Numbered from the whole stretch's first letter, positions 516-55,427 are shown. The stretch: DNA of 63,971 nt, filler included, from Kipferlia bialata (GCA_003568945.1; 3 parts of 2 records of this genome joined end to end with filler, not necessarily neighbours in it), one strand, 5' to 3'. Numbers and translations are program-made. The notes: generated from the sequence alone by a model not told the origin.

Positions 516-748
516 CTCACTTCTTGAACCTATATCCGAGACCAGTAGAGTCCTCTATTACGGTAGACATACTCACTTCTTGAACCCACATGCGAGCCCT
601 GTGCTGGGGTCCTTGACCACACACCCCGCCCCCAGCATCCTGTGTCCACCCTGTATAGGCAGGGAGAGCATGGCATGCACAACTGACTCAGTCCCGTAGA
701 AGGGGTGCGCAGCCACCTGAGTTAGACACACACATAAATAATATAGTA

Positions 749-790
<42 letters not shown>

Positions 791-3700
791 TACTATTGAG
801 GTATAGAGAAGTAGAAGGGGTGCTCGGCAACATGAGTTAGACACACATTTTATGCTAATCGTGTACTAAATCAAGCATTTGAGCAAATCAACTTGTCCTC
901 CGTCAGCACATGCCAATCATACAATAATGGCACACCATGTCATATATGAATATATGAATATATGTATATATATTAGGAGACTGTGTACACACCTTGTCCC
1001 CTGTCACCCCGTGCCCCAGTGCTATGACGGGCTGGGAGTCAATGACCATGGCGGTGGGCCTGTCCTGTTATAAGTACATATGTATATGTATATATATATA
1101 TATATATATACATTTCCATGTTATACTTTCATATATATGATGATATATGTGTTCACATGACCATGGCGGTGGGCCTGTCCTGTTGTCAGTCTAAGTGAAT
1201 ACTAGTACATGTCTATGGGTATGTATATACAATACTGTAAACATCACTGACCTCAGATGGCGATGGTCTCTCTAGGCAGTATGAGTACACTCTCCCTGTG
1301 CCGCATGGCATAGTAGGCAGACCAGACACATCGTGTGGGAATACCCACTGGGTACTGTCCATACCCAGTCTGACAGGGTGGAAGGGGGTGATACGGAGGC
1401 CACCTGGGGTTAGATATCAGTATAGATAATAGTACATAGTACTATCGAGATATATCAGATATAAAGTTGTATTAGGGTGGCAGGGGGTGATGCGGAGACC
1501 ACCTGCTGTTAGGTAAAATATTATTGTAATAATAGTATCATTGAGATATATTAGATACATTTCATTGGAATATAATGTATAAGGGTGGAAGGGGGCCACC
1601 TGGGGTTGGCATAAACCATCGACTGTACATGGAGCATATGGTACCTGGGAACACCACAAAGTGCTTTGATGTAATGATTCGTATATAAAAAACACATAGA
1701 TACAGAACATGCTAGTTGGGATATATATTTGTGAAAAGAATACCTGGGAATACCACAAAGTGCTCATAGGCAGAGGCTTCAGTGGACAGGACATGCTCGA
1801 CCTGGGGAGGTGAGACAGCATGAAAATACTTATGGGTATATATAAATGTAGATGTAGCCATATCATCACATATAGGCAGATGCCTCTGTGGACAGGACAT
1901 GCTCAACCTAGGGAGGTGAGACAGGGATGTCAATAGAATTGATTAAGAGTCATAAAGCTACATCCATGCACTAGTATACCTTTGCCGTCTGCCCCCCTGG
2001 CACCATGACCTCTGTCATGTACATATAGTAGTAGATATACATAATACCAATATAGAATTATTCCAATACCTACATTCATATGCCTACCTTAGCTGTCTGT
2101 CCCCCTGGCACCATGACCTCTGTCCCAGGCACAACCTGGGGTGAGAGTATGATAATACAATTATACATAAATATGCATATACATATACAGCATGTGTATC
2201 TCTGGGGGTCAAGACATGTGATATACAGTATGGTAATTGGATGATGTAAACAAGTACACTCGTAACCCAACCCGGAGGTATAAGTATGGTACACATGGAT
2301 GATATAGCAAAGCAGCCTGGAGGAGTAAATGGCGACTGACATGTAAACACTAGTGTTGAAATACCTCCTGTGCCCTGCACAATGTGCCATCTCTGTAATA
2401 CATATATAAATATAAATATCTCTCTCTCTCTATATATATATATATGCATACATATGCACATACACACCTCCTGTGCCCTGCACACTGACCCCTCTGCCAA
2501 TTCTCTCTCTCTCTATATATATATTAATATCTATGTATAGATATGGTATATGTACAGTACCTCCTCTGCCCTGCACACTGACCCATCTGCCAATTCTCTC
2601 TCTCTATATATATATATAAATATCTATGTATAGATATGGTATATATGCATACCTCCTCTGCCCTGCACACTGACCCATCTGCCAGTGCCACCTTAGAGTC
2701 ACAGTGCACACAGGGGCCGGCACTAGAGGGTGAGTCTAGAGATATAGTATAGTATAGTATATATATATATATATATAGATAGATAGATAGATTGAATAGT
2801 CATCTGAGTCACAGTGCACACAGGGGCCGGCACTGACAGTGAGTATATGGGTAGAGAGTCATACAGTCAGAAAGAGAGAGATAGAGAAAGAATATATATA
2901 AACGTGTATATACATACAGTCTCCATACCTCGTGTTGAATGCCGCGGCACTTGTCATCCTGACCCCATATATATACATGACATAGTCACATACTACTATT
3001 TGAATATGGTAGTATATATGAATGTATATACATATATATATATATATATAAGTCCTCACCTCGTGTTGAATGCCGCGGCACTTGTCATCCTGACCCCATG
3101 GCTAGATGAGGCAGCAGGGGGGGGCATCACGTTGAAGGTGAGGTTCTGGCGGTCAGAGCACTACGTATATAGTATACACAATATGAAAGTGATAGAGAAT
3201 AGACAAATGTACTCATATATATAGAGAGAGAGGAGGCATCAGGGGCATCACGTTGAAGGTCAGGTTCTATGGGGTTAGAGCACTCAGCAATTACCCATTC
3301 ATGTATTTGCTATATATATACACAAGAACTCAGTGGCCATCATATATAGTAAACTCAACAGTGAAAGAACCCAATAATGAAGGTAGACCCACCTGCTGCC
3401 TGACAAGCTCTCTATGGAGCTCTCCCCCGTATGCAGCCAGGGACTTGTCCTTGTGGTTGTTGCACACCTGGGGGGTGAAACTCCGCGGTATTACCAAAAC
3501 TCTACACGATAGTAACAGACGTGCAATCATCCTTTGATGAGACATCATATAGCGTTTCTATAAGATAAACCTAGGTCCTCACCTCTCTGCAGTGGCTGAG
3601 GCATATGGAGTACAGGTAGTGCCTGCCCCACCTGTCCATGAGAGATGCATATCTACATACACAGCATAAATAGCTAAAAATGAGGAGAACATGATATAAT

Positions 3701-5898
3701 ACTGGAAGAGCTAGGTAGTTTCATACTCTGTCTGCCCCACCTGTCCATGAGACGTGTGTGTGTATACATATATATTTATATATATTGACACTGTCTGCCC
3801 CACCTGTCCATGTCAGTATCAGTATCATACAGATACTGATACTGATACTATATATATGTATAGTAGTGTATACACATATGTTTGTCTGCCCCACCTGTCC
3901 ATGTGCTCGGGGTCAAAGGCGAGGGACATCTGCTCCTGGGGCATTAGATGTATTCTATAGAATTCTTATATAACATAGTAACTATACATCATACCTTGTA
4001 GTCCCTGTCCAGCTGTGCCAGCCACACCATGGGTCCAGGGTATATTAATATGAATACATATATATATATTTATATATATTATATATGAGTATATACATCA
4101 TACCTTATAGTCCTTGTCCAGCTGGGCCAGCCACACCATGGGTCCTGTCTCATCTAGGGACTCGCCCTGCCGGCCAGTGACCTGGGGGGTGAGATGCATG
4201 CTAATACACACACAGTATGAATATAGAATAGAGCTCTGTTAATACCCTGCCTGCCACTCACCTGAGTGAGGGAGGTATTCACACATAGTAGTGCTCTACA
4301 CATAATAGTACAATAGGCATATTGTTATATACACTTAACCCTCACCTCGGGTATTGAGTCAGCCATATGCTGTGCACACATACTCATACACACACACACA
4401 CATATATATATATATGTATAAATGATATCACGCCACAAATACCTCTGGGACTGAGTCTGCCATGAGCTGTGCACCCTCTTCTATACTCATACACATATAA
4501 ATATACATATATTGATATGGTATACAGATGATATATATATGTATACATACACACTACACACACCTCTGGTATTGCCTCTGCCATCAGCTGTGCGTACTGT
4601 TGGGCCAGAGGGGGGCAGGGGATGTGGACGTTCTGGGGTGAAGGTGGTGTATAGTATTGAACCTATCCAGGTATCCTGATTACATAGCCGAATTGCATAT
4701 ACTATAACCATATACACATACCGGTGGTGCGTTGTGCACTGCCTCCAGGATGGCACTGCACAGGCTGTGTCTGGGAATGAGGGGATAGGTGGAGAGACAG
4801 ATATGTGTATAGATAGATACACTATACTATACTATATATATAACTATACTATATATATACTATATATGGACTGCCTCCAGGATGGCACTGCACAGGCTGT
4901 GTCTATGGGGTTAGATGGAGGATACATATATATATATATATATACTATCACTATGTATATACAGAATGGACAAGAGGTGATGAGTGGAGAGACAGATATG
5001 TGTATAGATAGATAGACTGTATGTACTATATATGGACTGCCTCCAGGATGGCACTGCACAGGCTGTGTCTGGGGGGTTAGAGGGTGTATGGACTGATGCA
5101 TATATATGTATATAGATAAATAGACTCTATAAATACACATCTATACTATATGGACACATCAAGAATGGCACTTCACAGGCTGTGTCTGGGGATTAGAGGT
5201 AGACTTTCTCTTTAAGTCTAAAATGTATATATACATACACACACCTCACGTAGTGCCACAGCTGAGCCTTTGTGTCTGGCACTGTTGACCTAGACGCATT
5301 GACAGGGACAGACATGACTGGGGGGTGAGAGGGATAGTATCTATCCCACTATGATGTATTACTTATGTACACTCCCTCTCACCCTGGTCTGGCCTTGTGG
5401 GCAGTCTGTATGTGAGGGATACATTGTCTCCTCCCAGTGACACAGGCACACTCCTCGACTGGCCACACAGCACAGCACCCAGGGGGATCTAGACATGAGG
5501 GGAATAGTATAAGAGGGAATAGTATATATATATGTGTGTATATGTGCAGTACGTGACAAGCCACAGAGGACAGCACCCAGGGGGATCTATGGGGTCAGCA
5601 CACATCCCGGAGGGTAATGCAACTAATAACGAATTGAGACTGTACTCCCATGCCTTACTCCCCCCTGTAGTTGAAAGTGTTTACAATCCAAGTATGATGC
5701 ATCCCTACCTCCCCCCCCTTGCACCCCTCGAGTGTGACGTCTGTGGCCATGGTGCACAGGGCAGCTGGGTCAGTATATAGTAGTGGAATGAGAGCGAGAG
5801 AGATAGCGAGAGAGGGAGAGAGAGATAGAGAGACATCGTTGGCCATGGTGCACAGGGCAGCTAGAGGTTAGAGTATAGAAGGGAAGATAGACAGGTAG

Positions 5899-5932
<34 letters not shown>

Positions 5933-6080
5933 GTCTGTGGCCATGGTGCACAGAGCAGCTGGGGTGAGGGTATAAATATACATATATACAGAATACTGTA
6001 TATAGTAATAATAGAGAGAGAGAGAGAGATAAAGAGTTATCTATGGCCATGGTGCACAGGGCAGCTGGGGGTGAGGATGC

Positions 6081-6123
<43 letters not shown>

Positions 6124-8427
6124 CCCACCTGCCGTGCTGTGTACAAATGCTTCTTCCTCTCTCTCTCCTTCTCTCCCTCTCTCGCTCTCTCTCTCTCTCT
6201 CAATACATACGTATATATATACCTGCTGTGCTGTGTACAAATGCCGTGCCCACAAAGGAGGAGTCTGGGATGTAGGTGTACTGGCCTGACCTGGGGTGGG
6301 AATGGGTAGACAACTATACGCTAAACACATATTAGTATATAGATATATATATATATATATCCATCTCACCCCATCTGTGCCAGGTCTGCCAGCAGGTGTG
6401 TGTTGATGTTGCCGTAACCAAAGGCAAAGGTGTCCACACGGTAGCCCTGGGCGTGAGTCAAAACGCGAGATGGCACCGATACTTTGTATATACTCATGTA
6501 GATACATACTATCTCTACCTTAGTCTGTGGGTACTTTGTGTGGTATGACTCCAGCACTGTGTCTGAGTCTGGGCCCTCGTTGGGCATGCCATCGGTCAGG
6601 ACACAGATCTGTCTGAGAGTAAGTATCACGATATATATATGGGACTATAGTTATATATACTATAGTCCCGTTGGGCATGCCATCGGTCAGGACACAGATC
6701 TGTCTGGGGTGAGGAAAATATATACTATACACTGCACCATAATATATATATATATATATATTAGTACTTGGGCACACCGTCGGTCAGGACACAGATCTGC
6801 CTAGGGGTGAGGATAATGCACTGCTTACACTGTAAGTATATATATACAAACAAAAATCACACCCACCTGACACAGTCCTTCGGTCCCTCCATGGCTATAC
6901 ATATACACACGTATATATGTATATATATACAAATATATACATATATATATATATAGTCATACATTCAAATGAATTAGGCAAACATCGTATATCATCCCAC
7001 CTGACACAGTCCTCAGGTCCCTCCATGGCTATCTGCAGAGCTGTCTGGAGACCAGTGCCCATGGCAGTGCACCCACCGCAGGACAGGGACTCTGGGTGTG
7101 AGGGTACAATATACATATACTACATATACTATATATATACATTGATAGAGTCCCCATGGCAGTGCAGCCACCGCAGGACAGAGACTCTGGAGGGTAAGTG
7201 TATCATATATGTATATATTAATATATAACTCATGCATACATATATCCATGACACGTGCAGGACAGCTACTCTGGGTAGAAGGTCATGCATGACATATCTA
7301 TGTATATCCTACTTGCATTATGTACACACTTGATGCATATATAGTATCCACATACATGGTCCTGCATACCTATCTCCCTCTCTGCCCTCTCTATGCCCCG
7401 ATGCTAGTACATCCATCAATACCCATTATCTATATACTACTACACAATTGACTACTGATACCTATCTCCCTCTCTGCCCTCTCTATGCCTCCCTCCTCGA
7501 TGATGATATTTGCATACATATATATATATATACCTTTACTAGGTATTTCATGTACCTATCTCCCTCTCTGCCCTCTCTATCCCCTCCCTGGTAGTCCTGG
7601 TGGGTCTCAGGGCCACATGCACTCGGGAGTCAAAGCCGATGACAGAGACGTAGTCTACAGTTAGTAAACAGATACATATATATATATGTATATATATAGA
7701 ATATGGGTTACATGCACACAGGAGTCAAAGCCAATGACAGAGACATAGTCTGGAGTGAGTAAACAGATACATAGATAGAGAGATATACATACAGAGAGAG
7801 AGAGAGAGAGTATAGGTTACATGTTCACGGCAGTCAAAGCCAATCACAGAGACATAGTCTGGCATCAGAATGTACGGGTGGAACATACATACGATACACT
7901 GCCTTGCATACAACAATCTCCATGCATATAATCAGTATCTTCAGCACACATGACTATGAATGAATATACACATGCAGCAGTACACATGAATACTCACCGT
8001 TGTCGCCCAGGAAGTTAGACACTGCCTTGGCCCCCAGCTTGACAATGTCCAGGAGGTTGTTGGAGAACTCCTGAGGGTAAATGTATAATGGATATATAGT
8101 ATTACATATATATATAGATATGTGTGTTATAACAACAGATCTACCATACGCCATACCTCCAGCTCATTGTTTGCATTCCTCTTGGTGGCAGACCGGGTCA
8201 TGCTGCCTGGGTCAGTGCATGGTTATACACCAGACATATAGATATACTCAGATATAATGTGTCAATATATATAGAATATATATATGTGTACATACACTGG
8301 GATACAGTAATCCACCATTAAATATTCTAAACTCTGACGATACAAATACCTGATGTGTCCAAGAGTAGGATACAGTGCACAGTCGTGTACATATATATGT
8401 AAATGTATATAATGTACATATGATTCA

Positions 8428-8463
<36 letters not shown>

Positions 8464-10330
8464 TTGGGTATATACACACCTGACGTGTCCAAGAGTAGGA
8501 CACAGTGCACAGTCGTGTGCATATATATGTGAATGTATATAATGTACCTATGATTCAGTATATATATATATATATATCATAATGTACACACCTGATGTGT
8601 CCAGTAGCAGCACACAGTGCACGGGCTGTCTGTGTTGGGCAAGGGACTCCAGGGAGATGTTGACCTGGGGGTTGGTGCATATTCAAAACTACAGTATTAT
8701 ACACATATATAGGAGAAGGTTACCTATACATGTTTTGACCGACACATATACTGTATATACACATCCTTATGTACTCACCAGTGTATCCGGTGCCTCACTC
8801 CTCTCCCCCACTGTCTCCCTCAGCTCCATGGGGGTGTGGGTGCACACAAGCAGAGGGGTGGCTGGGGTTACTCAGGATAGCTACATACATACATGCACTA
8901 GTTATGATATATCTGTTCCTGGACAATGTGTTCATGCAGTGTATACATTTATATAGCTATTTGTATATACATATGTATAATGTATATATCACTGTACCTG
9001 GTGTGTCTGTGCCTGGACAATGTAAATATAGTGTCCGATTCTAATACATCATATATATATACATATACTCGATGTTCCATATATAACACTGTACCTGGTG
9101 TGTCTGTGCCTGCACTGCCCTTCCTGTCTCCCATCCACTCCTGGGGGGTCAGAGGAGACTGTATAAATATGTACATGGGTATACATGTGTACATGTACAT
9201 AGATATTTGTGTGAAACTGATACTTCTCTGCCTGTCAAACATCCACTCCTGGGGGGTCAGAGGGGTACACTTACGTGTGGTTGTATAGCTGAACACTGTA
9301 TCCATATGTCTTCCACTTCGGTGTCTGCCTGTCTGTATATACACGCTGTCTGTATATACACGTACTGTATGAATGCATCAAATGAATATGTAAATACTCA
9401 CTGTATACAGTATATCTGTATGTACCTCGATGTCTGCCTTGAGCTGTCTGTACATATGTGTTTATCAACATACATGTATCCATATCTATCCTAGCTGTCT
9501 TGCACATATATACGATATGTATACAACTATGACACATGTATCCATACCTCGATGTCTGCCTTGAGCTGTCTGTGCACACACACACACACACCCATATATA
9601 TATATGTGTATGTAAATATATTATGATTGTCATATTAACAGCATACACACATGTACAGTGTAATGAATCGATATACCTCGATGTCTGCCCTGAGCTGTCT
9701 GTTGGGCAGCAGCTGGGCTATGGTGCACGCAACCTAGGGTGGGTGTCACATTGCTAGGCTATACAGCATCATTAGTCCATCATAATGGTGTGGCAGTCAT
9801 GTCCATCACAGAGACAGAAACATGGTTAATGAGACTGCCATTCTCTATGCCAAGAGGGCATTCATGTGGATGTGTGACTCTTCCACAAGCAATAGTACTA
9901 ATTTGTAACACACCCATATCCACCCTACCTGTGTGGGAGTTGTTGGGTTCTCTCCTAGCCACTCCTCAATGGCAGCCCTGGGGATAAGGAGGTAATGCAT
10001 AGAGTTCATTATCATATCTCTCATGCATTCCTTTATAGATACACACACTTATGTATATGGATGAGCCACTCCTCAATGGCAGCCTTAGGGGTAAGGAGGA
10101 AGAGGGATACAGTTAATACTGATACATACATATGTATATATGAGTTACCCCATGATGGCTGATAGTCCCATATTATTAATATAGACTATAATATAGATTA
10201 TTTGCATATAGAGAGTGTAGATTCATTATATACAGAGAGAGACTGAGTACACATACCTCTCGTATGAGTGTCCATCTGCTGCCAGCACAGGGTCATCCAT
10301 GAGGGAGCCCTGATGTTAGTGGGCATATAT

Positions 10331-10383
<53 letters not shown>

Positions 10384-10500
10384 AGGAGGGAGAGAGGGAG
10401 GACAGGGGCATCCATGAGGTATCAATGGGGCTAGGGTATGTGTATATGTGTGTATAAGAGAGAGAAAGAGAAAGGAAGAGAGAGAGAGGACAGGGTCACC
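516..10500 (-). repeat. Intronic direct repeats that are partial copies of adjacent exon ends (exon echoes) separated by TA/CA/GA-rich filler
   Basis: Examples: 1158-1184 repeats 1042-1068; 1872-1907 and 1642-1665 repeat parts of exon 1744-1801; 2363, 2466 and 2559 repeat the end of exon 2653-2722; 4869, 5033 and 5152 repeat the start of exon 4722-4770; 5831, 5930 and 6044 repeat the start of exon 5709-5764; 8350-8380 and 8480-8510 repeat the end of exon 8592-8664. Confidence 0.95.
573..10309 (-). CDS. U-box + VWA + Vwaint + Hint (Vint-type, hedgehog-related autoprocessing) protein; 29 exons visible, 5' end probably lost at the contig break
   Basis: Hand-spliced GT-AG exons in transcript order: 10257-10309, 9929-9977, 9677-9733, 9095-9140, 8779-8861, 8592-8664, 8157-8206, 7998-8070, 7556-7654, 7001-7091, 6519-6612, 6370-6446, 6223-6290, 5709-5764, 5383-5488, 5245-5317, 4722-4770, 4564-4632, 4104-4181, 3895-3935, 3583-3631, 3393-3467, 3060-3145, 2653-2722, 2088-2135, 1744-1801, 1252-1403, 993-1064, 573-716. 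Total 2139 nt, phase-consistent, ending GFKK*. Motifs: U-box LMDDPVLAADGHSYERAAIEEWL...LLPNRQLRADIEEW; VWA MIDAS VLLLDTSGSM, YVSVIGFD, VLTDGMPN, VDTFAFGY, YTYIPDSSFVGTAF; Vwaint RWGRHYLYS...CNNHKD...YGGEL; Hint GP|CVHCDSKVALADGS, LRITPFHPV, WVFP, VIALGHG, AHPFYG. Confidence 0.9.
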
Positions 10501-10751
10501 CAATATATGTATAGGGATGTAGAAAGGGAAGGGAGAGAGCCGGTAAAGGCTCATGTATGAGGTAGCCTTACCCTAAGGTAACAGGAAGTGAAAAGAGATA
10601 GAGGGGGGGAAGGGGGGGGGTTGACAGAGAGAGAGAGAGAGAGAGAAATTACATACCAAGTCTATATACAGCCTGAATAGAAGTGAGGGTATGGCAGTGG
10701 AATGATGAGGGGGGTGGGGGGGGGGGGGGGGTGAGGGAATTTATGGCCCCG

Positions 10752-10851
10752 NNNNNNNNNNNNNNNNNNNNNNNNNNNNNNNNNNNNNNNNNNNNTTAAT
10801 TAATTAANNNNNNNNNNNNNNNNNNNNNNNNNNNNNNNNNNNNNNNNNNNN
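10752..10851. other. Artificial contig linker (44 N + TTAATTAATTAA + 44 N)
   Basis: Exactly 100 nt with a central all-frame stop palindrome, flanked by poly-G runs. Confidence 0.97.
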
Positions 10852-35436: not shown

Positions 35437-35536
35437 NNNNNNNNNNNNNNNNNNNNNNNNNNNNNNNNNNNNNNNNNNNNTTAATTAATTAANNNNNNNN
35501 NNNNNNNNNNNNNNNNNNNNNNNNNNNNNNNNNNNN
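35437..35536. other. Artificial contig linker (44 N + TTAATTAATTAA + 44 N)
   Basis: Same 100-nt structure as 10752-10851, after a long poly-C run. Confidence 0.97.
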
Positions 35537-37063: not shown

Positions 37064-40000
37064 TCAGTCTCTCCCCTCCAGCAGGTGCCTGACCACTCCT
37101 AGCACACCCTCACCTATAACAGAGGGTATGGGGAGGGGAGGGGCAGAGCGGACCTGGGGTGAGTCAATAGGATGTCTAGGTACAGGTAGAATAGAATCCT
37201 CCTACAATACTGAGACACTTCAGAGGGAGGTAGGGATGAAAGAGAGAGTGTATGTGTGTATACATACACATGTGTGTGTGCGTACCTCCCCCCTCTGCAG
37301 TCTGTCTGTGACATATGTCAGGATGGCAGAGTCAGACGGGAACACCCTGAGAGTGAGAGGGAGAGAGGCGGGGAGAAGAGGGTTATATAACCCTGGGTGC
37401 CATACCTGACCACACTAGTCTGGGTAGTGTTGGCGGCACTCTCTAGCAGTCGCTGCAGATCCTGGGGGTCAGGCACACAAACTGACAGATTACCACGTCA
37501 GGGTGAATACATAATACATATAGTAGAGAATGTATGATTGTACGTGTTAACAGAGTGGTCTGTTGTATACTCATGTGTGCGTACCTCTCCAGTATCTCTC
37601 AATATGTATAAATATGTATATATGCATATGTACCTGTCCAGTGCATGGGCCATCGTTCAGAGAGTACGGGTTGGGGGCCTGGGGTGAGGAACAGGTGATC
37701 AATGTGAATGTGATCACAATAGAGACGTGTCTATAAAAACCATACACCACGCACTATTCCTCCATGCTTATCCGAACGCGTCAAGAAATTATATATCTAA
37801 AAAAAATTGTACTATACTATTCGAGACAATGAATCCCACCTGTCTGAACGTGTCGTCCCAGTGGAACTCGTCCACCAGAGTGACCCTGCCCTGAGTACCC
37901 TCACTCATGCTGTCATAGTGGAACACCTCCTAGGGTGAGTGTATAGAGGATATATATAGGGAATATAATGTGGGGAATAGTATATACTGTTTTGGTGGAA
38001 CACCCCCTGGGGTTGAGACGGTATACATAGAGGGTATAAATGGCAAGCACTAGTACTATCTATCCACCACCACACACCTGCATGTTGATATCGTAGCACT
38101 CCGCCCTGTCGTGGTGTGATATGGTATGCACCAGTGTGGCCAGGGGCTTGTGGTCAGCCTCCCCTGCCTCCTCTCCATCTGCAACAGGGACAGTGGGGGC
38201 AGTGCTCTGCCTCTGCCTCTCTCTCTGCTCCTCCTGAGACAGAAGGGTGAAGAGAATGGCAGCGGCCACCTCCTTCACTGGGTTGCCCACACCTGCAAAG
38301 GCAAAGAGGTGGTAGCAGATGCTGAGCTGGGGGTCAGGTACGGAATGGTACAACGCTGCTGCATTCGTCTTTAACCAATGGAAGAATACTAAACCATATG
38401 AAAAAGAGATATAGATGAATGGATACCATAATTACTGTGTCGCACCATGCTGACTGGGACCACCACGTCATGGTACTCATAGACACAGGCCACGGGGGCA
38501 GCATCCATATCATCATCATCACTCAGAGGCAGGGCTGGGGGTTAGGTGGAGGGGGGGGATATAGTAACTATTTTGGAGACACCTCCACCCATACCTGCGT
38601 CTGTCTCATCCTCCTCCTGCAGCACCCTGTACTTACGCGTCTCCTGGCAGAGAGTCTCACTATATACCTGGGGGTGAGTAAGGCATAGAAGGGTCAATCA
38701 AATGTAGTATAGGCTACTTGCGTTGGCACAGAGGAGGTGTGAGCAAGAGCAGCTGTACACATTCATATCTATGACACGCAGGCGACGAACCGTGTGAAGG
38801 GATGGCTCTCTCCTCAGAGCCCTCAGCAACAGCACCAGGACAGACTTGACCTGGAGGGTGAGACAAGGATGAGACACAGTGGGACAGAGAGAGAGGAGCT
38901 TCAAACATCCAAGGGGTTAGGAACCCTAAGATCACTCTCAAGCACTAGTATATACCAGCCTTACCTGAGCCTCAGCGAGTGTGGGCACTGCCTGGCCCTC
39001 TGCACTCTCTCTCTCTCTCCTCTCCCTGGTCTCTCTCTCCTCCTCCGTCTCCCCCTCCCTCTCTGGGGAGTTCTTCACAACAGACGAGTCATTGGACACC
39101 TCATACTTCCTGAGGGTAAGGGAGAGTGGAACACAGTACCCGTGAGTATATACACTACCACACACACCTTACTGCCTCTATGCACATGAGAGTGAAGTGT
39201 CTGTTGGAGGCCAGCCAGGCCCCAAAGCCTGAGGTGCGGGACAGGTGCACAAGCATCTAGGGGTATGAGAGAGAGTATTAAGGGGGATATATCAGAAAGA
39301 CAGCCACACTCCTCTAGCACTATCATTGCAACTAGCTCCATTCTATCAACGCAGGTGTGATATCGGTGTGACATGGTGTGTGTGTCATATGTGTCAGTAC
39401 CTGCAGTGCCAGCCCCACCGACCCCTGTCTGAGTGCCATGGGTAGGACTATGTCAGTCAGGGCAGCGGCATGGGTGCGGGACAGATGCTCACACAGCACA
39501 GGCACCTGGGGGTTAATAGGATAAGTGTGTACATATCATATGTATGTACATATCATATGGATGTACATATCACAAGGATGTACATATCATATGGATGCTC
39601 ACACAGCACAGACACCTGGGGTTGGAAGTGTACTCATATACATACAGCACTACACAAGTACCTTCATGAGGTAGAGCAGTGCCTGGAGCAGCAGGTCGTG
39701 TCTGTCCCCCCCTGCCCCCTCTGTCAGTGCCTGTATCACACTGGAGATGGCAGCGGTGGTGCGGAGGGGGATGACAGGCATGTGGGAGGTGAGGTACACG
39801 TACCTGAGGTGAGGGTACAAATGATACGGGGAGCTCAAGTGATGAATGATGAACCATCTACTGGTATGATACTCCCACGTACTCACTGACTAGGAACCCG
39901 TCCAGCTCCACAATGGCACTGTCCTGGGGAGTGTCTGCTGGAGTGGCCTCTCCTCTGAAGGGGTGGGCAACGTTATAGAACACAATGGAGGCCTGAGAAT

Positions 40001-43000
40001 GAGAGACATGTCAATGAACAGATGTACCACTAGTATAGTACGTCGGTGTGATAGTTGTATAGTACGCATCTGTACCTCAGGTTCCGATGATGGGTCCTTA
40101 CACCTCTCCACTAGGGTGTTGGTGTGGCGCAGCAGAGACGCAGCGGCCCTCTGCCTCTCTCTCTCTGTCCAGTGGATGTGGTCCAGCTTGGAGTCACGCT
40201 CATACCTGTGGGGTCAGTGGCAGTGACCATACACAGAAGGTACTAAATGAGTTAGAGGTCAACGTTACCTGGCTCTGACTCTCTCTGTTTTCTTCTCTGC
40301 AGCTAAAGACACCGCCAGGGAGAGGGGGAGGAAGGAGGTGAGACCCGGCAGAACAGACGAGTGGTTCCTAAGGGGTCAGGGGAAGGTGTATATGACAGGG
40401 GTATATGCAGCACACCGTCTCTTCATGATGATGCGTTACTAGCACTCACCTCATGACGTTGACCAGGGCTGTGTGTGCCACATGGGCAGTGTCATCCTGG
40501 GGTCAGAGAGACGGGTGATGAGTAACCACCATACACATACAGATATATAGACACGTCAGACACATGTAGATGCCCACTATATATATATATATATATGTGT
40601 GTGTATACGTATCCACCCACCTGTGGGTGGCATAGTGCCAGGTGCACAAGAGAGTACACAGGCCACACTGGGTTGCCCTGGCCCACGTCAATGGAACTGG
40701 GGTGAGGGTATAGTAGGGTCAGTAACGAGAACATGAAGAGCAGAATTCACACATATATCAACATATCGGATACATGCACCCCCTGACCTGACGTCTGACA
40801 GGAGTGTCAGCAGCATATGTTGTCTGGTAGGGGGTGTAGGGGGGGAAGGGCCAGTGTACAGGGCGGGTATCTGGTGGGGTCTCTCCATGGAGAGCAGGTT
40901 GGTGGCCCTGGGGTGAGACGGAAGGGGGTAAATGGCATACTGCTGGACAAGACACCCCACCTGATGACAATACCATTGATGGTGTCGGTGGCTGTGTCTG
41001 TGTCACATGTCCAGCTGGGTCTGTCTGACATGGACACACCGGTGTCAGGGGCAAAGCATGGGTGAGGGGGGAGAGGAAGCAACAATAATTCTATTAATGC
41101 CAAACGGCTATTAACAGATAGAGCTGGGAGAGAGACGGCAACTGTATATCCACCGATACCTGTCAGGGCACACAGCAGCAGTCTCTTCAGCACCAGGGGC
41201 TGCTCCACAGCCTTGGCCCTGGGGAAGGGACAGAGGAAGGAGGCAACCTGGGGGTGAACGGGTTATAGGAAGAGAGAGACTTAGGTTTCCACATCAGCCT
41301 AGTTTCTAGCATATACTGTACCGCTCACCTTCCTCTCACTGGGAGACATTGATGCACTTGCCCTCTGCCTCTCCCCCTCCTCCCTGGAGATACCCACCAG
41401 GGCAGCAGATGCCATACTGGACAGACACTCCTGGGCTGGGGTGGCAGTGTCAGCCAGGGACAGGAGGAGCAGGTGCATGATGGTGGATGTGGATCTGGGG
41501 GTAGAGGGGGGGAGAGTGGCACGACAGGTTGGGTGTATCATAGTTCACGTGCGATTCCAGTATTGTTATATCAATGGTGTCTACGCTACATACCTCATGA
41601 GTCCAGCACATGTAGATCTGTCGTCTGCACACAGCACTACAGCCACACCCAGACACAGGGTCAGCCTCCTAACAGTGGAGGCATCTGAGAGGGCATAGAC
41701 AGACCCTGGGGTGAGAGGGAGTGAGAGAAAGAGTGAGGTGTCACTGTTGACTATTACGCTTCGATGGCATGCATCATCCACACGGTAACAGCACTCACTG
41801 TGCATACAGCATAGTGTGCACATACCTGCATGAAGGCACTGGGTGTACTCGGTGTCACTTGCAGTGAGGAGTGCCGTGATGGTGTCTGATATGGTATCCA
41901 CGCACAGCCTGGCCACTTGCTCCCTGCCCTCTGCCTCTCTCCTTCTGGTCTCTCTCTCTCTCTCTCCCTCCTCAGCTGTAGAGACACAGACATGGGTGGA
42001 GAGGGTGGGGAGGGCGGCAGGGTAGGAGAGAGAGGGGTCGGTGTGGATGGTCACCTCCTGCTGTGAGACACCCAGGTGATATGTGCTAGTATGTATATCC
42101 ATATATACATCATACCCTTGTGGTTGGTGCAGCCACTGTGGGTGTCTTGGCCTTGCCCCTCCCAAACAGACCCTTCCTCGATGGCTGGGTGTAAGGGGGA
42201 GAAGAGTGCATTGCTATTATGCCCATGTTATGCCCATGTTATGATACTGCTACTCACCGACATTCACACTAACTTCACATCATAAAGATTAAGGAATATT
42301 CATCACATAGACATCCATACCTTTGCACTTGCTGTGGTGGGTGTGGGTGTGATAGCCACAGTCTCTGTCCTGGTCTCTCCCCCATGCAGACATGATAGAA
42401 GGACCTAAGAGTAAGATGTGACACATACAAACCGCTAAAAGAACGATCATGAGGAGGGTATGACAGGATGTGAATGCCGTACCTGAGCACCGACTACAGA
42501 CAGGTACACCACTCTCTCCCTCTCTCCCTCCTGCCTTGGTAGCATCAGAGGGATCTCAGTACGGGGATGCCTAGGGGTCAGAGGAATAGTGCAAGAAATC
42601 GCTACGTACCCCTTGGAGCCTTGCCTGATGTTTGTGAGTATCCTGACACTGGATCTGTCCTTGGAGGACGGGAGCAGCATGATGGTGCGCTGGATGTCGG
42701 ATATCCTGGGGGTGAGAGGGATATATGAGGAAAACACACAATGCTGCAAATCATCCAGATACACAACCATAATCTGTATCAAGAGTAGAGATAGACACCA
42801 TGCCCACCTCTCTTCCACCACGCCCAGGTGCCACACCGAGTTGTACTCTATCCTAGTGGCCATGAGTACAGTGGCAAAGCACTGTGCGGCAGCCTTGAGG
42901 GAGGGGCCAGTGAGGGTCTGAGGTCAGAGGAGAGAAGGGGTGGAGAGTGTATTGATGCAACTGGATGTAGATACTGTCGCACTACCCTACATACAGCAAT

Positions 43001-46000
43001 TCACCTCCCCCTCTGGTATGAGTGCCTGTGCTATGGCCGGGGACAGCACTGCACACACCACGGACCAACAGTCAGACAGGGCCTGACGGGGGGTGGCCTT
43101 GGTAGACACGGCAGGCGAGGCAGAGGCAGAGGGGGTGGTGACACTCTCTGCCCCACTCTCCGTCTCAGTCTCTGTCTCAGTCTCTCTTGCTATGCAGTGG
43201 GCAAGGCGGCACAGGATGCTGGCGCCTATGGTGCCTGGGGGTAAGGTAAGTGAATACATGTGAATGACCAGCCCTGACAGAACATGATGCATACCTAGCC
43301 TCCTGAGCTCCGGTGTCATCTCAACCACCCCCTCATCCACATAGACAGGGGAGGCAGGGGACAGTACGCTGGTGGAGGCAGGGGTGCCTGGCGGTTAAAC
43401 AAGAGGTATCAGATAGAGAGAGTAGGGTATATAGTTACTCACCCATCTGTGGGGGTGTGACGCCTGTGTCATCGTCCCCATCCAGCACAGGGACAGCACT
43501 CTGCTGGGCCAGTCTCTCTCTCTCCTCCCTCTCGGCTCTCTCCGTAGCAGAGACAGACAGGTATCTGCGGTCAGACAGAGTAGAGCAAAGATCTGTATGA
43601 ATGGTACAACCCCCCCCCACCTGTTCCGTCTCTCTGTCTGCATGGCGTGTCTGGCTCTGTTCAGCACATACAGCAGCACAAACAGCAGGACACCCTGGGA
43701 CACAAGGGCACCCACACCGGCCTGGCATGTAAGGGGGATGGATATATATAGAGAGAGAGTGACATGGTTGGGGACTGACTCCTGTGCATACACTCACCCT
43801 GGAGTTGCTGAGGGTAGACACCAGCTGCAGGGCCCTCTCTGCATGGGCACTGCCCTTCAGACCTGGAGGTGGGAGAGAGGGTACATACGCATATGAGAAT
43901 TGAAGGTCTGGGTGCATCTTCTAGAATGAACCCCCCTTACCTGCGACCTCTCTTCCCTCAAACACTAGGTCTGAGTAGAGACTGGCTGCTATGCCGGAGA
44001 GCAGACCATACTTGATGGAAATGGCATCTCCCTGGGGTAAGACATAAGCATACAGTATATATAGAGTGTGTGTGTTGTGTAGGTGGAACACACTCACCTC
44101 GGGGTGGGACACCAGTAGTACCCTCAGAGCAGCCACAAGAACCATGTTGAGCCTGAGGGGTGAGACACAGACTGACAGACACGGACACACCCACTCATAT
44201 GCATACATACCTGGTCAGTGCGTCCAGCCACTCTGCCTCCTGTACCAGGGAGGGGGAGTCAGCAGGGAGCTCCTTCTGCTGGCGCTAGGGTAAGGGAGAT
44301 ACAAAACTACTAATTATTGGGGTACACGATGACGTATCCACTCCTCCCCTTTACCTGATGGGCGTTCCCCCTCTTGACCAGCAGGACAGATGACACAGAG
44401 TACAGCTGGGACAGGGACCGGACGGCACGGGCCTGAAGGTGAGAGAGATAATTGGACAATGGGACACCGAACAGAGCAACCAGCTGAGTGTCTCTCCAAA
44501 GTAAGTATTGATAACGGTATCGCATCCCCCACCTGCTCGTCTCTGAATGTGTCCATCAGCTCAGACAGGGACTCGGCAATCTCATGCGACATGTACCTGG
44601 GGGTGGGTGGAGAGGGAGGTACATACTACCATAGCCAACACGCAGCAGCCAGTGCACCCAGATGCACTTAAATATATACCTACATATACCGTACCCGCTG
44701 TATATACATACAAACATACACACCCCATACATAAATATATACATACATATACCGTACCCACTGTATATACATACACACATATGGAACCCATACCTACTGT
44801 TCATAGTGTCGAGTGCGTCGTGTCTGTTCATGGATGCTGCCCTGACCGACGTGATACCGGCTGCCAGGGCCCTGATGCCAGAGGATGACATCTCAGATAG
44901 GGAGAAGGAGCCTGGGGTGGGGTGGGTGGATACATATATACCGTGGATGGATAGGCTATATATACACCCCACACCTTGGCTGGACACCCTGGCTGACTTG
45001 AGCACCCTAGTGATGAGGGGGCCATACACAGAGACAAGGGTCCTGGAGGGTGAGAGGGGCATAGTGGAATAGAACAAGGTAATATACAGGATATGGTCCC
45101 ATACCTCTGGTATGCCAGGATGGACTCAAAGGAGGAGAGCATCCTGGCTCTGATGACATCTGGGTGCAGAAGGACCTATGGGGTGAGGGTATATACATGG
45201 GAGACTAAATACAACCGGCACAGTGATAACACCCCCTACACTCACCTTCATGTCGTCTGTGAGCAGGACAGACACCCCACTGCCCCCACTCAGAAGGGCT
45301 GCCCTCTCCAGCTTGGAGTGGGTGTCGCCATAGGAGGCAGACAGGGACCTGATGATAAGTGGGCTGAGAGGTAGGGTGGCATGTATGGGGGATTGACGCA
45401 GTACCTGTAGTGCTGTATCTCCTTCTGCAGCAGTGCCTGTGCGTGTGTGAGACAGAAGGTGACTGAGAGAGACAGGGCCTCTGCGTCTGCCTCTGCCGAT
45501 GCCTCTCTCTCTCTCTCAGAGACGGCAGAGGCAGAGATACCACTGCGGGCACGCTCCTTCTCTCTCTCCCTGTCTCTCTTCTTCCTGAGGGTTGGACGAG
45601 AAAAGGGGGTCAGTGATAAAGAACCAAAGAACTACATCGTTTCATACGATACTACACTGCTATATACCACTGCAATGTGCATATGCACCCCCACCTGCTC
45701 TTTGTCATGGATGTGCTCTCACTGAGTAGCATGGACACATCGGCCAGGGTGAGGTCGAGGGTGATGCCGGGGGTGTCGTAGTCTGCTAGGAGGTGTCTGG
45801 GGGTGAGGCAGTTCAGAAACAGTTCCACTCCACATATGTCATAGATGTATATGTGGGTACCTGATGTAGATGCCTCCCACCCTCATCTCTGTCTGCAGGG
45901 ATGGGTATGTCACCTTGGGCACAGTGGTCACATCCAGAGGGGAGACAGACCCAGACAGCACAGATGAGTAGTACGACCTGGGGGTCAGAGGGAAGGGTCG

Positions 46001-49000
46001 GGTGTAAGTATACACACTGTGACTCTCTCATATGTAAGATATGTGATATGATGTCACCTTGTCGCCAGTCTGATGCACTGCCTCAGGTGCTGCCTCATGT
46101 CTGTACCCCACACCGCATCGTATCTCGTGTACTCATCGGCACCGAAGATGCCTGGGGTGAGAGATAGATATGTGTGTGTGTGTGAGATCTTCGATACCAA
46201 ATTCATGGGCCTAGGACATGAGAGAGAGTGTGGTATTGACTCACCGCTGAATGCACTGGCATCTCTCTTCAGCTTCCTAATGAATGCAGCTGGTATCAGG
46301 CTCTCAATTGCTGCAGCATTGGCGTCATACTGCACAGCCTGGGGGTGGGGTGGGACACGGAGGCAAGGCCTAATAATAGTACACTTCGCAGTTACCAAGT
46401 ACCTTCTCGAGCAGAGACCCCACTGCGTCCAGGTGGGTGTGCCCTGGGTAGAGGAGGAGGAGGGGGAAGAGCCCTGTGGCATGGAGGGTGGGGAGGAACA
46501 CACGGTTCCTAAGGGTGAGGGGTGAGGGGTGAGGGGCAGGGGTCAGTGAGTAAAGCACTTGAGAGTATGCATAAATGGTCATATCGCACTATACCTTGCA
46601 CACACTGCATCGTAGATGGCTATGATCCTTCCACTCAGGACATCATACCCGTCCAGGTCAGGGTGGGACAGGTGGGAGGACACACCTGGGGTGGGGAAAT
46701 AGAGAATATACATATATATCTGAACGTCCTGACCTAGAACGGCAAAGAGCAAGCTGTAGATCTCTGGGTCGATGAGCAGCCTCTTGATCCTGAGGTGAGG
46801 GAGTGAGTATATCAGGGAGACATCTATACATCTAGCTACCTCTGATTCTGGTATAGTACTGAGTACAAATAGGATATAGCACATTTCGCCTGTCTGTACC
46901 TGGGAATGGGTGCCAGCACCCTCTTCCTGTCGAATGCCTGGCATGCATTGCCCAGCACCTCCACCACAGTGAGTAGGGCAGAGACTAGGCCGATGTCATC
47001 GGTGTAGGGCAGGGCCATGTCCTACAGGGTAAGTATATGGGGCATAGAGGGAGATGAGGGGGGCATGTCTAATCATTCCTACACTCGCCAATACCTGTGC
47101 CTCTCCCTGATCCTCAGCCTCCTCCTGTGACCCAGCCTCTGCCTCCTGTGGCTCCTCTGCCTCTCTCTCCCTCAGCACTGTGGGCACTATGCTGGTGATG
47201 GCCAGCCTCAGGATGTCTGCTCCCATGATGACTGACACACACTTCTGGGGGTGAGAGACAATGGCGGGTATGATACACCATCAGTCACTCTTACTTACTA
47301 GCACCACCCTACCTTAGAGTGTGCTATACACACGTTGAACAGGAGGATGAACAGGGACGCAGTGTACATGTCACTGGGGTGAGGGGTAGAAGCTGATAGA
47401 GAGGGTATGAGACGACACACCACTCACCCAGCCTGCAGTGTCTGCTTGAACAGCTGACAGCTCTCACTGATGAAGGGGAACAGCTCGGAGGAGGAGGAGT
47501 GGATAGACTCCCTGGGGGTGAGGGGGGGGATGATTGTGAGGTATGTGTGACTACCACCCACCTCCTCCCTGTCTGCCTGCACTGTATCCTCTCCTGTGCA
47601 CGTACATGCACCAGCATGGCCATAGTGTATATGCAGGCAGCACGGACACGCCTGCGGGTGAGACACTCACACACTGATTCTATCACTACCTAGCTTTGCC
47701 CTTGTCTCTGTACAACTATCAGCCCCTATACCCATCATAAGTGTCCCCTCACCTAGACTCTGCCCTGACCAGCCTGAGGAATGCAGCCATCATCAGGTCA
47801 TCATACCTGGGGGGTGAGACATAGGTAGATAGAGGTAGATACAGGCAGATATAGGTAGATAGAGGAAGGGAGGAACTCACAACATGCGTATCTCTGAATT
47901 CGTACCCTTCTGCGACCACGTCCACCATGGGAGCCACGTCACATGCCACTGTGTCGCTGCCCCCTGTCTTGACCATGGCATCGTGGATGCCAAGGGACAG
48001 GGAGAGAGATAGAAGGTGCGACAGGAAGAAGGGGCCAACCAGGATGTTGCTGGGGTGGGATATAAGCAGAGAGGTATACATAGAGTGTATTAATTACCAG
48101 AACGCTTTCATACCTGTGTGTGGACGTGTACTGCACACTGAACTCCCAGTAGTTCCAACACAGCTCCTCATCGGTGCGGATGCTCTGCTCTGACGGGGTA
48201 AGGAAGGGGATGGTGATGGTGACCACACCTCTCACACATTCTACGATATATATAGCACCCACCTACTGTGAACAGGTCCAATTCCTCCTGTAGGGCATGC
48301 ACCAACTCCTGGGTGGTAAGAAGAAGTACATAGTGCGAGCAGAGACTTTCAATATCCACACACATACACCCTTATCCCCATACCTGCCTCGTCTCCTCAT
48401 GCCACACCAGAGTGGGGGAGGTGTGGGTCTGGAACAAGGACTGGAACAGACCCCTGTGGATGAGGGATAGGACTCATTGTACAAATGTGTGGTGTACTGT
48501 TGGATGTATATATGCATGTGCCGCACCTCCAGTTCCCCTTGGGATATCCCCTGAGTGACCCGTGCCACTCAGTGCCCTCTATGGGTAAAGGCTCTGTCCT
48601 CTCCCTGTCCCTGCCTGCCACACTAGGGGAGAGAGAGAGCGGGGCAGGGGTGGATGGGGCCTCAGGGAGAGAGAGGGTCTTAAGCAGAGGCAGGGGGAGT
48701 GCACGCTCCAGAATGGACATGGAAGACTGACTGCCCTGTAACAGACATGCTGGGGGTAAGGAGGGAGAGGGGGGGAGTATGAGTGTGCTAGTACAACCCA
48801 CCTAGCAGCTGGCTACTGGCTGTCTTTGTGCCGGACAGGGGGGACACAAGAACAAGGCTAGGGTGAGAAGGAAGGGAAGTACAGGTTGGTAAACACACAT
48901 ATATATGCAATAACCAAGAGAGCAAGGCTGCTTGAGAAACCCCACACCTCAGCAGCTGTAGGATAACGGCCCTATCTCTGGCCTTGCTCCTGACCAGGGT

Positions 49001-52000
49001 CTGCTGCGAGACAGGGGTCAGGGGGTCCTGGATGGTAAGCAGAGCAGGAAAGGGGTTGTTGTATTGATTATAGTGATGCACTATCTCCACCTGCATGATT
49101 CCTCTGAGTATGTCACTGCTGGGCTGGGAGAGAGAGAGAGACAGGGTGGGGGCCAGGGTGGCCAGCACAAACAGCATGTCCACGTTCTCAGTCAGGATGG
49201 TGATGAGGGCACACCGCCAGCTGGGGTGAGGGGTAGAATTGAAATCATAAAGATAGCATATATATACGAACTAGTTTATCAGGAAGACATCCCAATGCAG
49301 GTGTACCTGATCCCCTTGTCCTTGAACAACAGAACATGAACTGGTATAGTATATATAGCACTGAGTAGACAGCTGCCCAGTGTGCGTGTACCTGATCCCC
49401 TTGTCCGTGTCGGTGTCTGCAGGGGTAGGGGTGGGGCGTGCAGAGGGGTCGGCAGGGTCGGAGGGGGAGGGGGAGGGGGAGGGAGAGGGGGAGGGCTGGG
49501 GCTTGGCAGCCTGGGACAAGGAGAGGAACGGGAGGTGGGACCTGTGGGGTAAGGAATAGAGCAATGATTAACACCTAAGTAATACGCAAGGATTCTTTAC
49601 TCAGCTCACCGTACCTTGAGCACAGGATGTCTGAGCATGTGGACACCAGCACAGAGTCACACAGGACAGAGAGGACAGGGGGGGCAGACACTACATGCCT
49701 AGGGGTCAGTAGGTTGTATATGACATACATCTAATATACTAATACATACACAATCCAATACCTCTCTACGTTGACGTATGCAGCTGTCTGTGTGTCGTGT
49801 CCCTGGCTCTGCCTCTCTGCATACCCCTTAGCCCTGTCCATGCCCCTATTCAATAGGCTGTACAGCAGAGACAGCGTGGGGGAGGCCTGGGCGTCGGACA
49901 GCAGTCTCTCTCTGTTCTTGGCCTCCCACCCACATACAGTGCCTACATGGGTCCTGAGAGTCAGACACACTATATACATATGCATATGTACATATACAGA
50001 CATTCACCAGCTTGAGAGTGAACCATGACGATGTAGTAGAATGAAGTTGTGCAGCAGCATTGACATCACCTATCGACAGGTGCAAGTGAGCAGAACTGTA
50101 CCAAGGAGTCGTGGTACACAGGGAAGGTGTCGTCGGTTGCCTTGGATGTCTTGCCTGTCTCATCAGTGGCATACACAAAGTAGCTCTGCCCACTGACCCA
50201 GACGGTGGAGTACCCCTCCCTGGGCCGCTCCTTCTCTCTCTCCCTCTCTCTACCTCTCTCACCCACTGTGCACCAGGAGTAAGACAGAACAGCTGGGGGT
50301 GAGGAGGGTGAGGCAAGGCGGTAGGTAGACAACTATATCATGTGGAAGTGAGCAATATCATAGGTACCTCTCATGAGTGCTGCGGCATAGAGTGCCACCC
50401 CCCTCGAGGGTGACTGTACCATGCCCTGGAACACAGACACGGCGGTGGGGGACTTACCAGTGGCCCTGGGGGTGAGGCAAACAATGAAGACGGATAGATA
50501 GTATTGGTAACATGTCAGACTGAAACATATAGACAGGGTAGCTATAACACATACGTACCTATAGACACTGGGACATGCCAGGAGGGACAGCATGCAGGAC
50601 AGGAGTAGGTGGGTGGCAGCTGGGCACGCATAGGTGTCGATGGCAACCATGGTGTTAAGCAGTTCGGAGAACACACGGGCCTGTTGGTCACTATGCATAA
50701 TCGTTAGAAAATCTGTGATTAACTACATGAGACGATACCTGTGCGAATGGCGGCACTCTGTTCCTGGGCTGGAAGGCTATGTAGTCTGCCATTGTCCCCA
50801 CATACCCCTCACACAGCCTGTCTCTCTGGGCCTCCTGCCTCTCCCCTTGGTCCTAAGGGTGAGGGACTACATACTCACTCACAGGACGTGACACATATAA
50901 TATACACAGCCCACCATACCTGAGGGTTGGGATGGTCGCTGGACATGGTCAGAGAGGCCAGGTCGGTGTAGATCCGCTCCTGTACGTCCTGGAGTCAGAC
51001 ACCACTAATACGAAATGGCAAATCAACAGAGCCACCAAGGGTGATATACAAATCCCACTAACCTGGTGTATCTCTGTGTCGCCCCCTGGGATACCGGCCC
51101 TACCAGTGTGGAGGGCAAAGGCGGGGTTGGGTCTGAAGAGTGACAGGCGAGGGGTGGTGTGGTGACCAGCACACAGCTAGGGTTAGACAAATACAGACAC
51201 ACTACAGAGGAATATAAATGGATGTGGTTGTGTCACAAAGGACTCATTAGAGCACCTGCATAAGGTTGGAGACAAAGGACTCTCTCTGGGAGGACTGGGC
51301 TTCCCTCTCCTTCTCTCCCTCCTCAGGTGACGCAAACACCACAAAGAGAGAGGGTGAGCTGAGGGCAAGGGGTGATGAAGGGTGGGCAGAGTGGAGAGGG
51401 GCCAGACACAGCTCTACCGACAGTGGCAGGCGTCTGAGGGTTGTGACCCCCTCTCCCTGTGGCTGTGTATCGGCACCAGGGTCAGTACTCGTGTCCTCAG
51501 CTGTAGTGGGTGTACCACTGGGCACCTCTACCTCCTCACACTGCAGGGATACACTCCCCCCTGGAAGACCCCCAGCCCCATCTGCCAGCCTCACACACAC
51601 TGTCTCTCTCTCAGCCTCAGCCTCTCCCTCTGCGTCGTGCAGCACTATGCGGTCTATGTCTGTATACAGCACCGTGTCCACCATGTCTCTGCCACATCTG
51701 ACCAGCAGTGCCCTGTCCGTCAGGGTCAGGTCACACACCCTCCCGGCACCCAGGTAGGGAACAGGGCCATCCGGTACACTGGCAGCACTGGCTGAGTAGG
51801 GGGTGGGGGTGGTGACCGGGGAGACTGAGGTGGAGGTGGCGTAGAAGACTGCACTATCGGCCAGTACCCCCTGGGCACTAGCCAACACCCCTTCCTCTGG
51901 TACTGCCAGAGTGTCAGCATCAGGAGACAGCATGCAGAGAGAGGCAGGGTCAGGCAGAGTCACACCTGAGTAACGGAACATGCCGCCTGGAGGGTTAGAA

Positions 52001-55000: not shown

Positions 55001-55427
55001 GGAGGGGTGGGGCGGGTGGTGTCCTTGGCACCAGTCTCTTGGCTAAGGGTGGGGGCCATGCTCAGGTCGGGGAAGGCAGGGGCAGAGGGGGCCTCAGGGG
55101 CCTGGGGTGAGTAGCACATACAGAAATACAAGAAATAGGTCAGTTGCAAATTGACACACAACAGAGAGGGACTATGCATAAACCACGTCACCTGTTCCCC
55201 TGGGAACTGAGCACCATACAGAGACATAGATAAATAGCTACATCTACATATATACACTCACTATATACCGGCAAATATATGCTCATAATATACTACGATG
55301 GACTATAACTATGGTATCTATATGTATATGTATATCTATGTGTACCTGCTCCCCTGGGAACTGGGGCCGTGTTGGTCTCTCTGGCATGGCACTGAGCAGG
55401 TCGAGGGAGTGGGAGGGGTCGAAGGGT
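37064..55427 (-). CDS. RME-8/DNAJC13-like endosomal protein, highly divergent, very many exons, 5' end in the gap
   Basis: IWN-type repeats: HTSPTLVWHEETRQ|ELVHALQEELDLFT|...CWNYWEFSVQY...|NILVGPFFLSHLL (about 47900-48455) and IFGADEYTRYDAVWGTDMRQHL...PKVTYPSLQTEMRVGGIYIRHLL (about 45790-46150). Helical-repeat exons continue to ...VVRHLLEGRD* at 37064. That the Pro/Ser/Thr-rich 53260-55427 part belongs to the same gene is inferred from continuous splice sites. Confidence 0.7.

Follow-up and report, generated by a model that had tools for sequence, protein, structure and literature searches.

Zero-nucleotide recursive splicing at ratchet points is known from Drosophila and human, where it has been described for long introns, and introners are insertions whose target-site duplications supply splice sites. 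The neointrons of Daphnia carry flanking repeats, show internal repeats later on and include parallel gains at one site, the last making up 43 of 90 neointrons (PMC4202315), and a review credits repeats of the Daphnia type to NHEJ (PMC3443670). Introns arising by duplication have been described in ATP2A1, two fission yeast genes and potato RdRp (PMC4974935, PMC3629103, PMC2891723), and a table in the same review counts 188 events under tandem genomic duplication and 5 under break repair (PMC3443670).

Gained introns with a readable origin are rare. Intron 20 of KIPB_000386, a gene of the free-living protist Kipferlia bialata, is supported by a transcript, missing from a paralog and marked by a footprint of unusual length, and it stands in a lineage reported to be without NHEJ, to which gains of this kind are usually attributed. 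The window analysed here is a stretch of 63,971 nt from assembly GCA_003568945.1 (3 parts of 2 records, filler-joined, one strand); it is composed of joined draft contigs and is not one continuous locus.

573..10300, minus strand: host gene KIPB_000386 (709 aa), with 29 coding exons in the model built here
10752-10851 and 35437-35536: contig joiners (N-linker-N)
55490-56440: further N gap

The encoded protein carries U-box, VWA, Vwaint and Vint/Hint domains (precomputed for the database protein, P0001). Our 29-exon model, including the intron-20 junction, remains open for 712 codons and is identical to P0001 from the Met of P0001 onward. Among searches with single exons, Pfam matches were obtained for Vint (E 1.9e-6) and Vwaint (E 0.1); exon 29 as a query returned no match, and a 23-residue piece spanning the fourth junction copy described below matched no Pfam family. 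The gene has a strong proto-splice pattern, with AG at the end of 23 of 28 exons and GT at the start of 10 of the 28 exons that follow. At its margins, the last codons and stop recur 56 bases downstream (516-596), a second copy of the start-codon region lies 88 bases upstream (10390-10502), and an additional U-box exon is possible upstream of the annotated Met.

Four junction copies and the removal of intron 20

The region of intron 20 is laid out as follows, a module being the segment between the cuts of two successive copies of a CAG|GT junction 18-mer.

3895..3935, minus strand: exon 20, 41 nt, ending in CAG and holding the first half of copy 1
3632..3894, minus strand: intron 20, 263 nt, phase 2, taken out whole in the RNA-like contig
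3583..3631, minus strand: exon 21, 49 nt, starting with GT and holding the second half of copy 4
3886..3903, minus strand: copy 1, the working donor, with no branch-like motif before its CAG
3795..3812, minus strand: copy 2, an inner AG|GT preceded by CTGA-N6-CAG
3732..3749, minus strand: copy 3, an inner AG|GT preceded by CTCA-N4-CAG
3623..3640, minus strand: copy 4, the working acceptor (CTCA-N4-CAG), with a putative branch-like motif at 3642-3639
3804..3894, minus strand: module 1, 91 nt, whose filler holds a perfect 14-bp hairpin at 3813-3845
3741..3803, minus strand: module 2, 63 nt; an inverted look-alike of its filler (3750-3791) lies in intron 6
3632..3740, minus strand: module 3, 109 nt, with no source found within the window
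8259..8297, plus strand: possible template of filler 2, inverted, within intron 6 (score 55)

The 18-mer is exact in all four copies; at up to 3 mismatches the window holds 7 matches against 0.27 expected, a number reached in 0 of 100 shuffles, and between some pairs of copies the repeat extends to 21-22 bases. Copies 1-3 have 12 bases in common after the AG|GT cut and copies 3-4 have 12 in common before it, while copy 4 differs from copies 1-3 by one synonymous base (AGG versus AGA). All three intronic copies carry ACA in place of the exon's GCA, a pattern also compatible with a single ancestral intron. The terminal repeat of intron 20 spans 18 bases, compared with 1-7 in the other 27 introns of the gene; as expected of a break-repair neointron, its two ends carry exon sequence in direct repeat to an extent above background.

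Contigs from two sequencing runs of one sample, X1 and X2, were compared with window stretch 3394-4040; neither run is on record as RNA, and the reading of X2 as RNA is a tool's guess. An X1 DNA contig spans the stretch unbroken, with 0 other letters and flat depth, and X1 may be the source of the window DNA. The RNA-like X2 contig (2163 bases) skips 115, 263 and 59 bases, all GT..AG. Its 263-base joint runs from 3622 to 3886, that is, from copy 1 to copy 4; the place of this joint is ambiguous over the 18 repeated bases, and once the cut is moved on by 9, its minus-strand ends read GT..AG. At contig level, with the RNA status of the run guessed, intron 20 is a spliceosomal GT-AG intron that is removed from the transcript. 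The spliced junction reads FDPEHMDR|WGRHYL, in frame and with one copy regenerated, within a motif, [KR]WGxHYL, that is kept in 5 of 5 aligned proteins. Retention of any module, in all 7 combinations, brings a stop at codon 471-485, so complete removal of the intron is needed. The 59-base joint arises where the contig was placed on a spare donor copy in intron 19 (3995-4036); because 3 letters differ there and the contig's free end runs on into exon 19, the X2 contig uses the true exon 19.

Each module starts with GTGGGG and ends in CAG after a branch-like motif (CTGA-N6, CTCA-N4 and CTCA-N4, respectively). Introns of the gene in which no spare copies were detected (n=8) measure 65-195 bases, and the layout of intron 20 fits three normal-sized mini-introns set head to tail. 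The branch-like motif stands before CAG in 3 of 3 intronic copies and 0 times in the exonic copy; it precedes 25 of the gene's 28 working acceptors, against a background of 50 of 218 intronic YAG, and we infer that such motifs act as branch points. A fixed branch-to-acceptor spacing has been described for diplomonads (PMC6679479). At copies 2 and 3 an inner acceptor, with its branch-like signal, is directly followed by a donor, an arrangement read from sequence alone; recursive use of these inner AG|GT copies is conceivable, though we rather doubt it. Among the joints of the X2 contig over 3394-4040 none falls at an inner copy, contigs being prone to drop rare forms.

The fillers between the copies have a GC content of 26-34% and align neither to each other (z of -0.3, -1.1 and -1.5) nor to exons 19-22 (z of 0.2, -1.6 and -0.2), so the intron body is not decayed exon. 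Neither a multi-copy element nor a family of similar intron bodies of the kind that would mark an introner was found within the window. The 14-bp stem of filler 1 was reached in 1 of 500 shuffles, and equally long stems occur in introns 6 and 10. For filler 2, one of three fillers tested, 0 of 200 shuffles reached the score of its inverted match (maximum 53), which lies in low-complexity DNA, a comparable inverted-match-like signal being present in 6 of 71 intron segments. Hairpin and look-alike together give a weak hint of templated fill-in. Intron 20 as a whole folds mildly better than shuffles (z -2.55, 4 of 200).

These results bear out most of what the sequence-only reading had described, namely four exact 18-mers, unrelated AT-rich spacers, an intron 3632-3894 with its donor from the first copy and its acceptor from the last, and in-frame regeneration of one copy at HMDR|WGRHYL, where the model agrees with the database protein. 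Its remark that the acceptor lacks the usual signal is half right: the C-rich middle is indeed replaced by exon-derived letters, but the local register CTCA-N4-CAG fits. It had overlooked that spare junction copies are present in 19 of the gene's 27 other introns.

Spare exon-end copies elsewhere in the gene

717..10256, minus strand: span of the spare exon-end-plus-splice-site copies (41 copies)
3995..4036, minus strand: example of a spare donor copy, in intron 19; 42 nt, 39 identical, unused by the RNA-like contig
37918-38013, 39484-39621, 49301-49406 and 55190-55363, minus strand: four spare copies (acceptor or donor), each standing alone, in genes other than KIPB_000386

Anchored at splice sites, the spare copies measure 14-42 bases (median 29), 19 being donor-side and 22 acceptor-side. 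The first contig, which carries KIPB_000386, accounts for 48 of the window's 62 short direct-repeat pairs. An unanchored scan placed 40 of 45 exon-intron matches in the adjacent intron and in the same orientation; 38 of these 40 copies run up to the splice site. As no copy spans an entire exon, use as alternative exons was rejected as a general rule. GT is present in 18 of 19 spare donors, only 3 of which share the working hexamer; of the 22 spare acceptors, 20 have a terminal AG and 19 the branch-like motif.

With repeated differences counted once and the intron-20 copies left out, the unique differences between spare copy and exon comprise 56 synonymous and 32 non-synonymous changes (56 of 88). 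The expected synonymous share is 0.24 under neutrality and at most 0.385, the value for an exon that changed by synonymous substitutions alone (p 1.7e-6), and neutral local duplication alone was rejected for the spare copies as a set. Between spare copies, 16 differences are synonymous and 17 non-synonymous (p 0.002), and the amino-acid changes lean slightly towards conservative ones (28 of 2000 null draws), with 2 stops among 31. Because of this synonymous bias, and because the splice sites look valid yet differ from the working ones, many spare copies likely derive from diverged working versions; former alleles would be such sources, with slight decay since. No donor allele or close paralog was seen, and X1 has no other letters on 3394-4040. 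The paralog KIPB_002567 was rejected as donor, its DNA identity being ~85% at the best parts and its residue matches 2 of 31 against 1.45 expected.

Introns 6, 16 and 24 hold true local duplications (filler-to-filler z of 5.8-14). In introns 9, 10, 13, 18, 23, 25 and 28 the innermost spare donor and acceptor bracket a complete, normal-sized intron of 60-99 nt (for example 6801-6866, 6065-6128 and 1908-1979), as if the original intron lay in the middle and modules had been added outwards. In several stacks, divergence is lowest for the copy closest to the exon. All spare donors follow AG-ending exons (13 of 22 versus 0 of 5, p 0.025), a bias that could be due to chance or to a rescue through re-splicing. 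Recursion as a general account of the spare copies was discarded, since a GT start is absent from most exons with spare acceptors. Although 19 of the 22 spare acceptors look valid, the splice sites used in the annotated protein are the outermost ones, and the gene thereby raises a question of splicing. Since four spare copies stand in other genes of the window, the copying process is not confined to one gene; the neighbouring gene at 41000-48500 shows, by eye, mostly plain short introns.

With their synonymous bias the spare copies point to a route of intron growth, and they may outweigh the intron-20 stack as a finding. Our literature search, outside which lay most subscription journals and the supplements of the genome paper, returned no description of intron growth by spare copies, or of such stacks, in Kipferlia.

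Origin of intron 20

The intron is absent at this position in KIPB_002567, the one paralog compared. A DNA contig and an RNA-like contig of this paralog match 3592-3635 ungapped, with 7 of 44 letters differing, and both continue with the same 30 letters, which by eye encode AMAFTGQYL, the KIPB_002567 residues before KWG; the paralog DNA is thus without an intron at the intron-20 site. At the next junction the paralog DNA contig has 151 other letters that are missing from the RNA-like contig, so intron 21 is common to the paralog and intron 20 is not. Gain of intron 20 is therefore likely, on a polarity taken from one paralog and with loss in that paralog as the alternative. Among metagenome homolog loci, 72 of 80 show the motif, and in each of these 72 the frame stays open for 87 codons or more upstream; the loci add little on gain, the search patterns and ranking being biased towards intron-free genes. 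Metagenome contigs commonly carry full-length U-box/VWA/Vint homologs without introns (L001-L080), and some of these contigs are very long (L004 and L006 exceed 300 kb). The annotation of the paralog protein (P0002) has no U-box, and the depth of the paralog's RNA-like contig, no measure of expression, is far below that of the host gene.

We favour, with a probability of roughly 60%, an origin in which ~21 bases of exon with CAG|GT were duplicated around unrelated AT-rich filler in error-prone repair and the product was then stacked three deep. A break near the site would have been mended by recombination together with Pol-theta-type end joining, a route proposed because no Ku70 is on record for Kipferlia. 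Metamonads are reported to be without NHEJ and to rely on recombination, some with alternative end joining (PMC8516963), and for K. bialata the Ku70 row is empty and Pol theta and five Rad52 entries are given (PMC8516963 Supplementary Data 2). One broken end would copy from a homolog and then join by microhomology or fill-in. At an existing intron such copying would leave the exon end plus splice site twice, and selection would keep only copying events without an extra exon. At an exonic CAG|GT the ~21 bases would be duplicated around filler, giving a new intron once a branch motif precedes the second copy; a CT[CG]A motif of branch-like form directly ahead of the duplicated ATGGACAG would make the downstream copy a working acceptor. 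The stack could then reflect the same event recurring at the site, or an end-to-end joining of independently filled alleles whose 21-base repeats had paired out of register during exchange. The same copying would have struck most introns of the gene one-sidedly, from diverged working versions. It is a bolder and unlikely proposal that Kipferlia, without canonical end joining, mends breaks by one-ended copying from diverged alleles and that this is the single process behind intron birth, wherever the copied stretch spans AG|GT, intron growth and recursively cut stacks of normal-sized mini-introns; if it were true, former working junctions would lie piled like strata inside introns, and a short-intron protist would have ratchet points.

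The stack could also descend from one young intron multiplied head to tail by tandem duplication, its bodies diverging later by microsatellite turnover. The true local duplications in introns 6, 16 and 24 lend this some plausibility, as do the 12-base identities that link copies 1-3 after the cut and copies 3-4 before it. Yet the bodies are unalignable while the 18-mers are identical even outside the splice signals, and 8 of the gene's 28 introns lie at AG|GT with terminal repeats in intron 20 only; we regard such multiplication as quite improbable. Alternatively, an older AG|GT intron could have been lost in the paralog and have had both of its ends overwritten here from an intron-free template (allele or cDNA), a course that would likewise yield a junction copy in mRNA order and that draws on the one-sided copying rife in this gene. 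It nevertheless requires at least two events and an intron-free template, the paralog retains the neighbouring intron and reads Y-K-W at the site, where AGGT cannot be encoded, and AGGT occurs at the site in only 3 of 72 metagenome homolog loci, so that overwriting is improbable as well.

Classical gain after Rogers, by tandem duplication of an AGGT-bearing exon segment whose spacers would be decayed exon, accounts for the AG|GT in every copy and for the regeneration of exactly one copy. The AGGT duplicate does supply both splice sites of intron 20, but an exon-derived body is not found: the spacers are GC-poor, come in three lengths and are unlike exons 19-22, and the repeats beside them are undecayed, which makes this origin very unlikely. 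The sequence-only reading had taken the structure as that predicted by proto-splice-site duplication, and its core survives in that AG|GT exon sequence is duplicated and the paralog is intron-free, whereas the body is filler and no plain tandem exon duplication. It had also called natural examples scarce, which applies to precise AGGT cases but not to the tandem genomic duplication events tallied in the review cited above. An assembly artefact that stacked allelic introns is hardly credible; the window is a join of draft contigs and X1 may be the same DNA, but a separately assembled contig spans the four copies with 0 differences and flat depth, and no alternative DNA path crosses the stretch among those listed.

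Comparison with known systems

The genome paper considers the 124,912 introns of Kipferlia probably ancestral (PMC5874029); intron 20, which is real, spliced and probably gained, suggests that at least some Kipferlia introns were gained after gene duplication. The interest of the locus rests as much on the gene-wide stacks as on intron 20.

Like the introns credited to tandem duplication, intron 20 would take its donor and acceptor from a duplicated AGGT-type exon stretch and leave the protein unchanged, and a fission yeast case described in that literature also spans several copies; the body of those introns is, however, duplicated sequence, whereas in intron 20 only ~21 bases are repeated and the filler is unrelated. 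Introners resemble it in that duplicated flanks supply the splice sites, but intron 20 contains three mutually unrelated fillers. Inner AG|GT copies would, like ratchet points, regenerate a donor, though the modules that they delimit measure only 63-109 nt. The break-repair neointrons of Daphnia pulex are similar in that the end of the neighbouring exon is directly repeated, the source of the filler is not known, internal repeats come later and gains recur at one site (PMC4202315, PMC3443670). Their repeats are of 4-12 bp and shared with one adjacent exon, as against 18-22 bases straddling AG|GT and present four times in Kipferlia, and they are credited to NHEJ, which metamonads are reported to be without (PMC8516963). 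By analogy with these systems, intron 20 works like a break-repair-type neointron whose splice sites would come from a duplicated proto-splice site.
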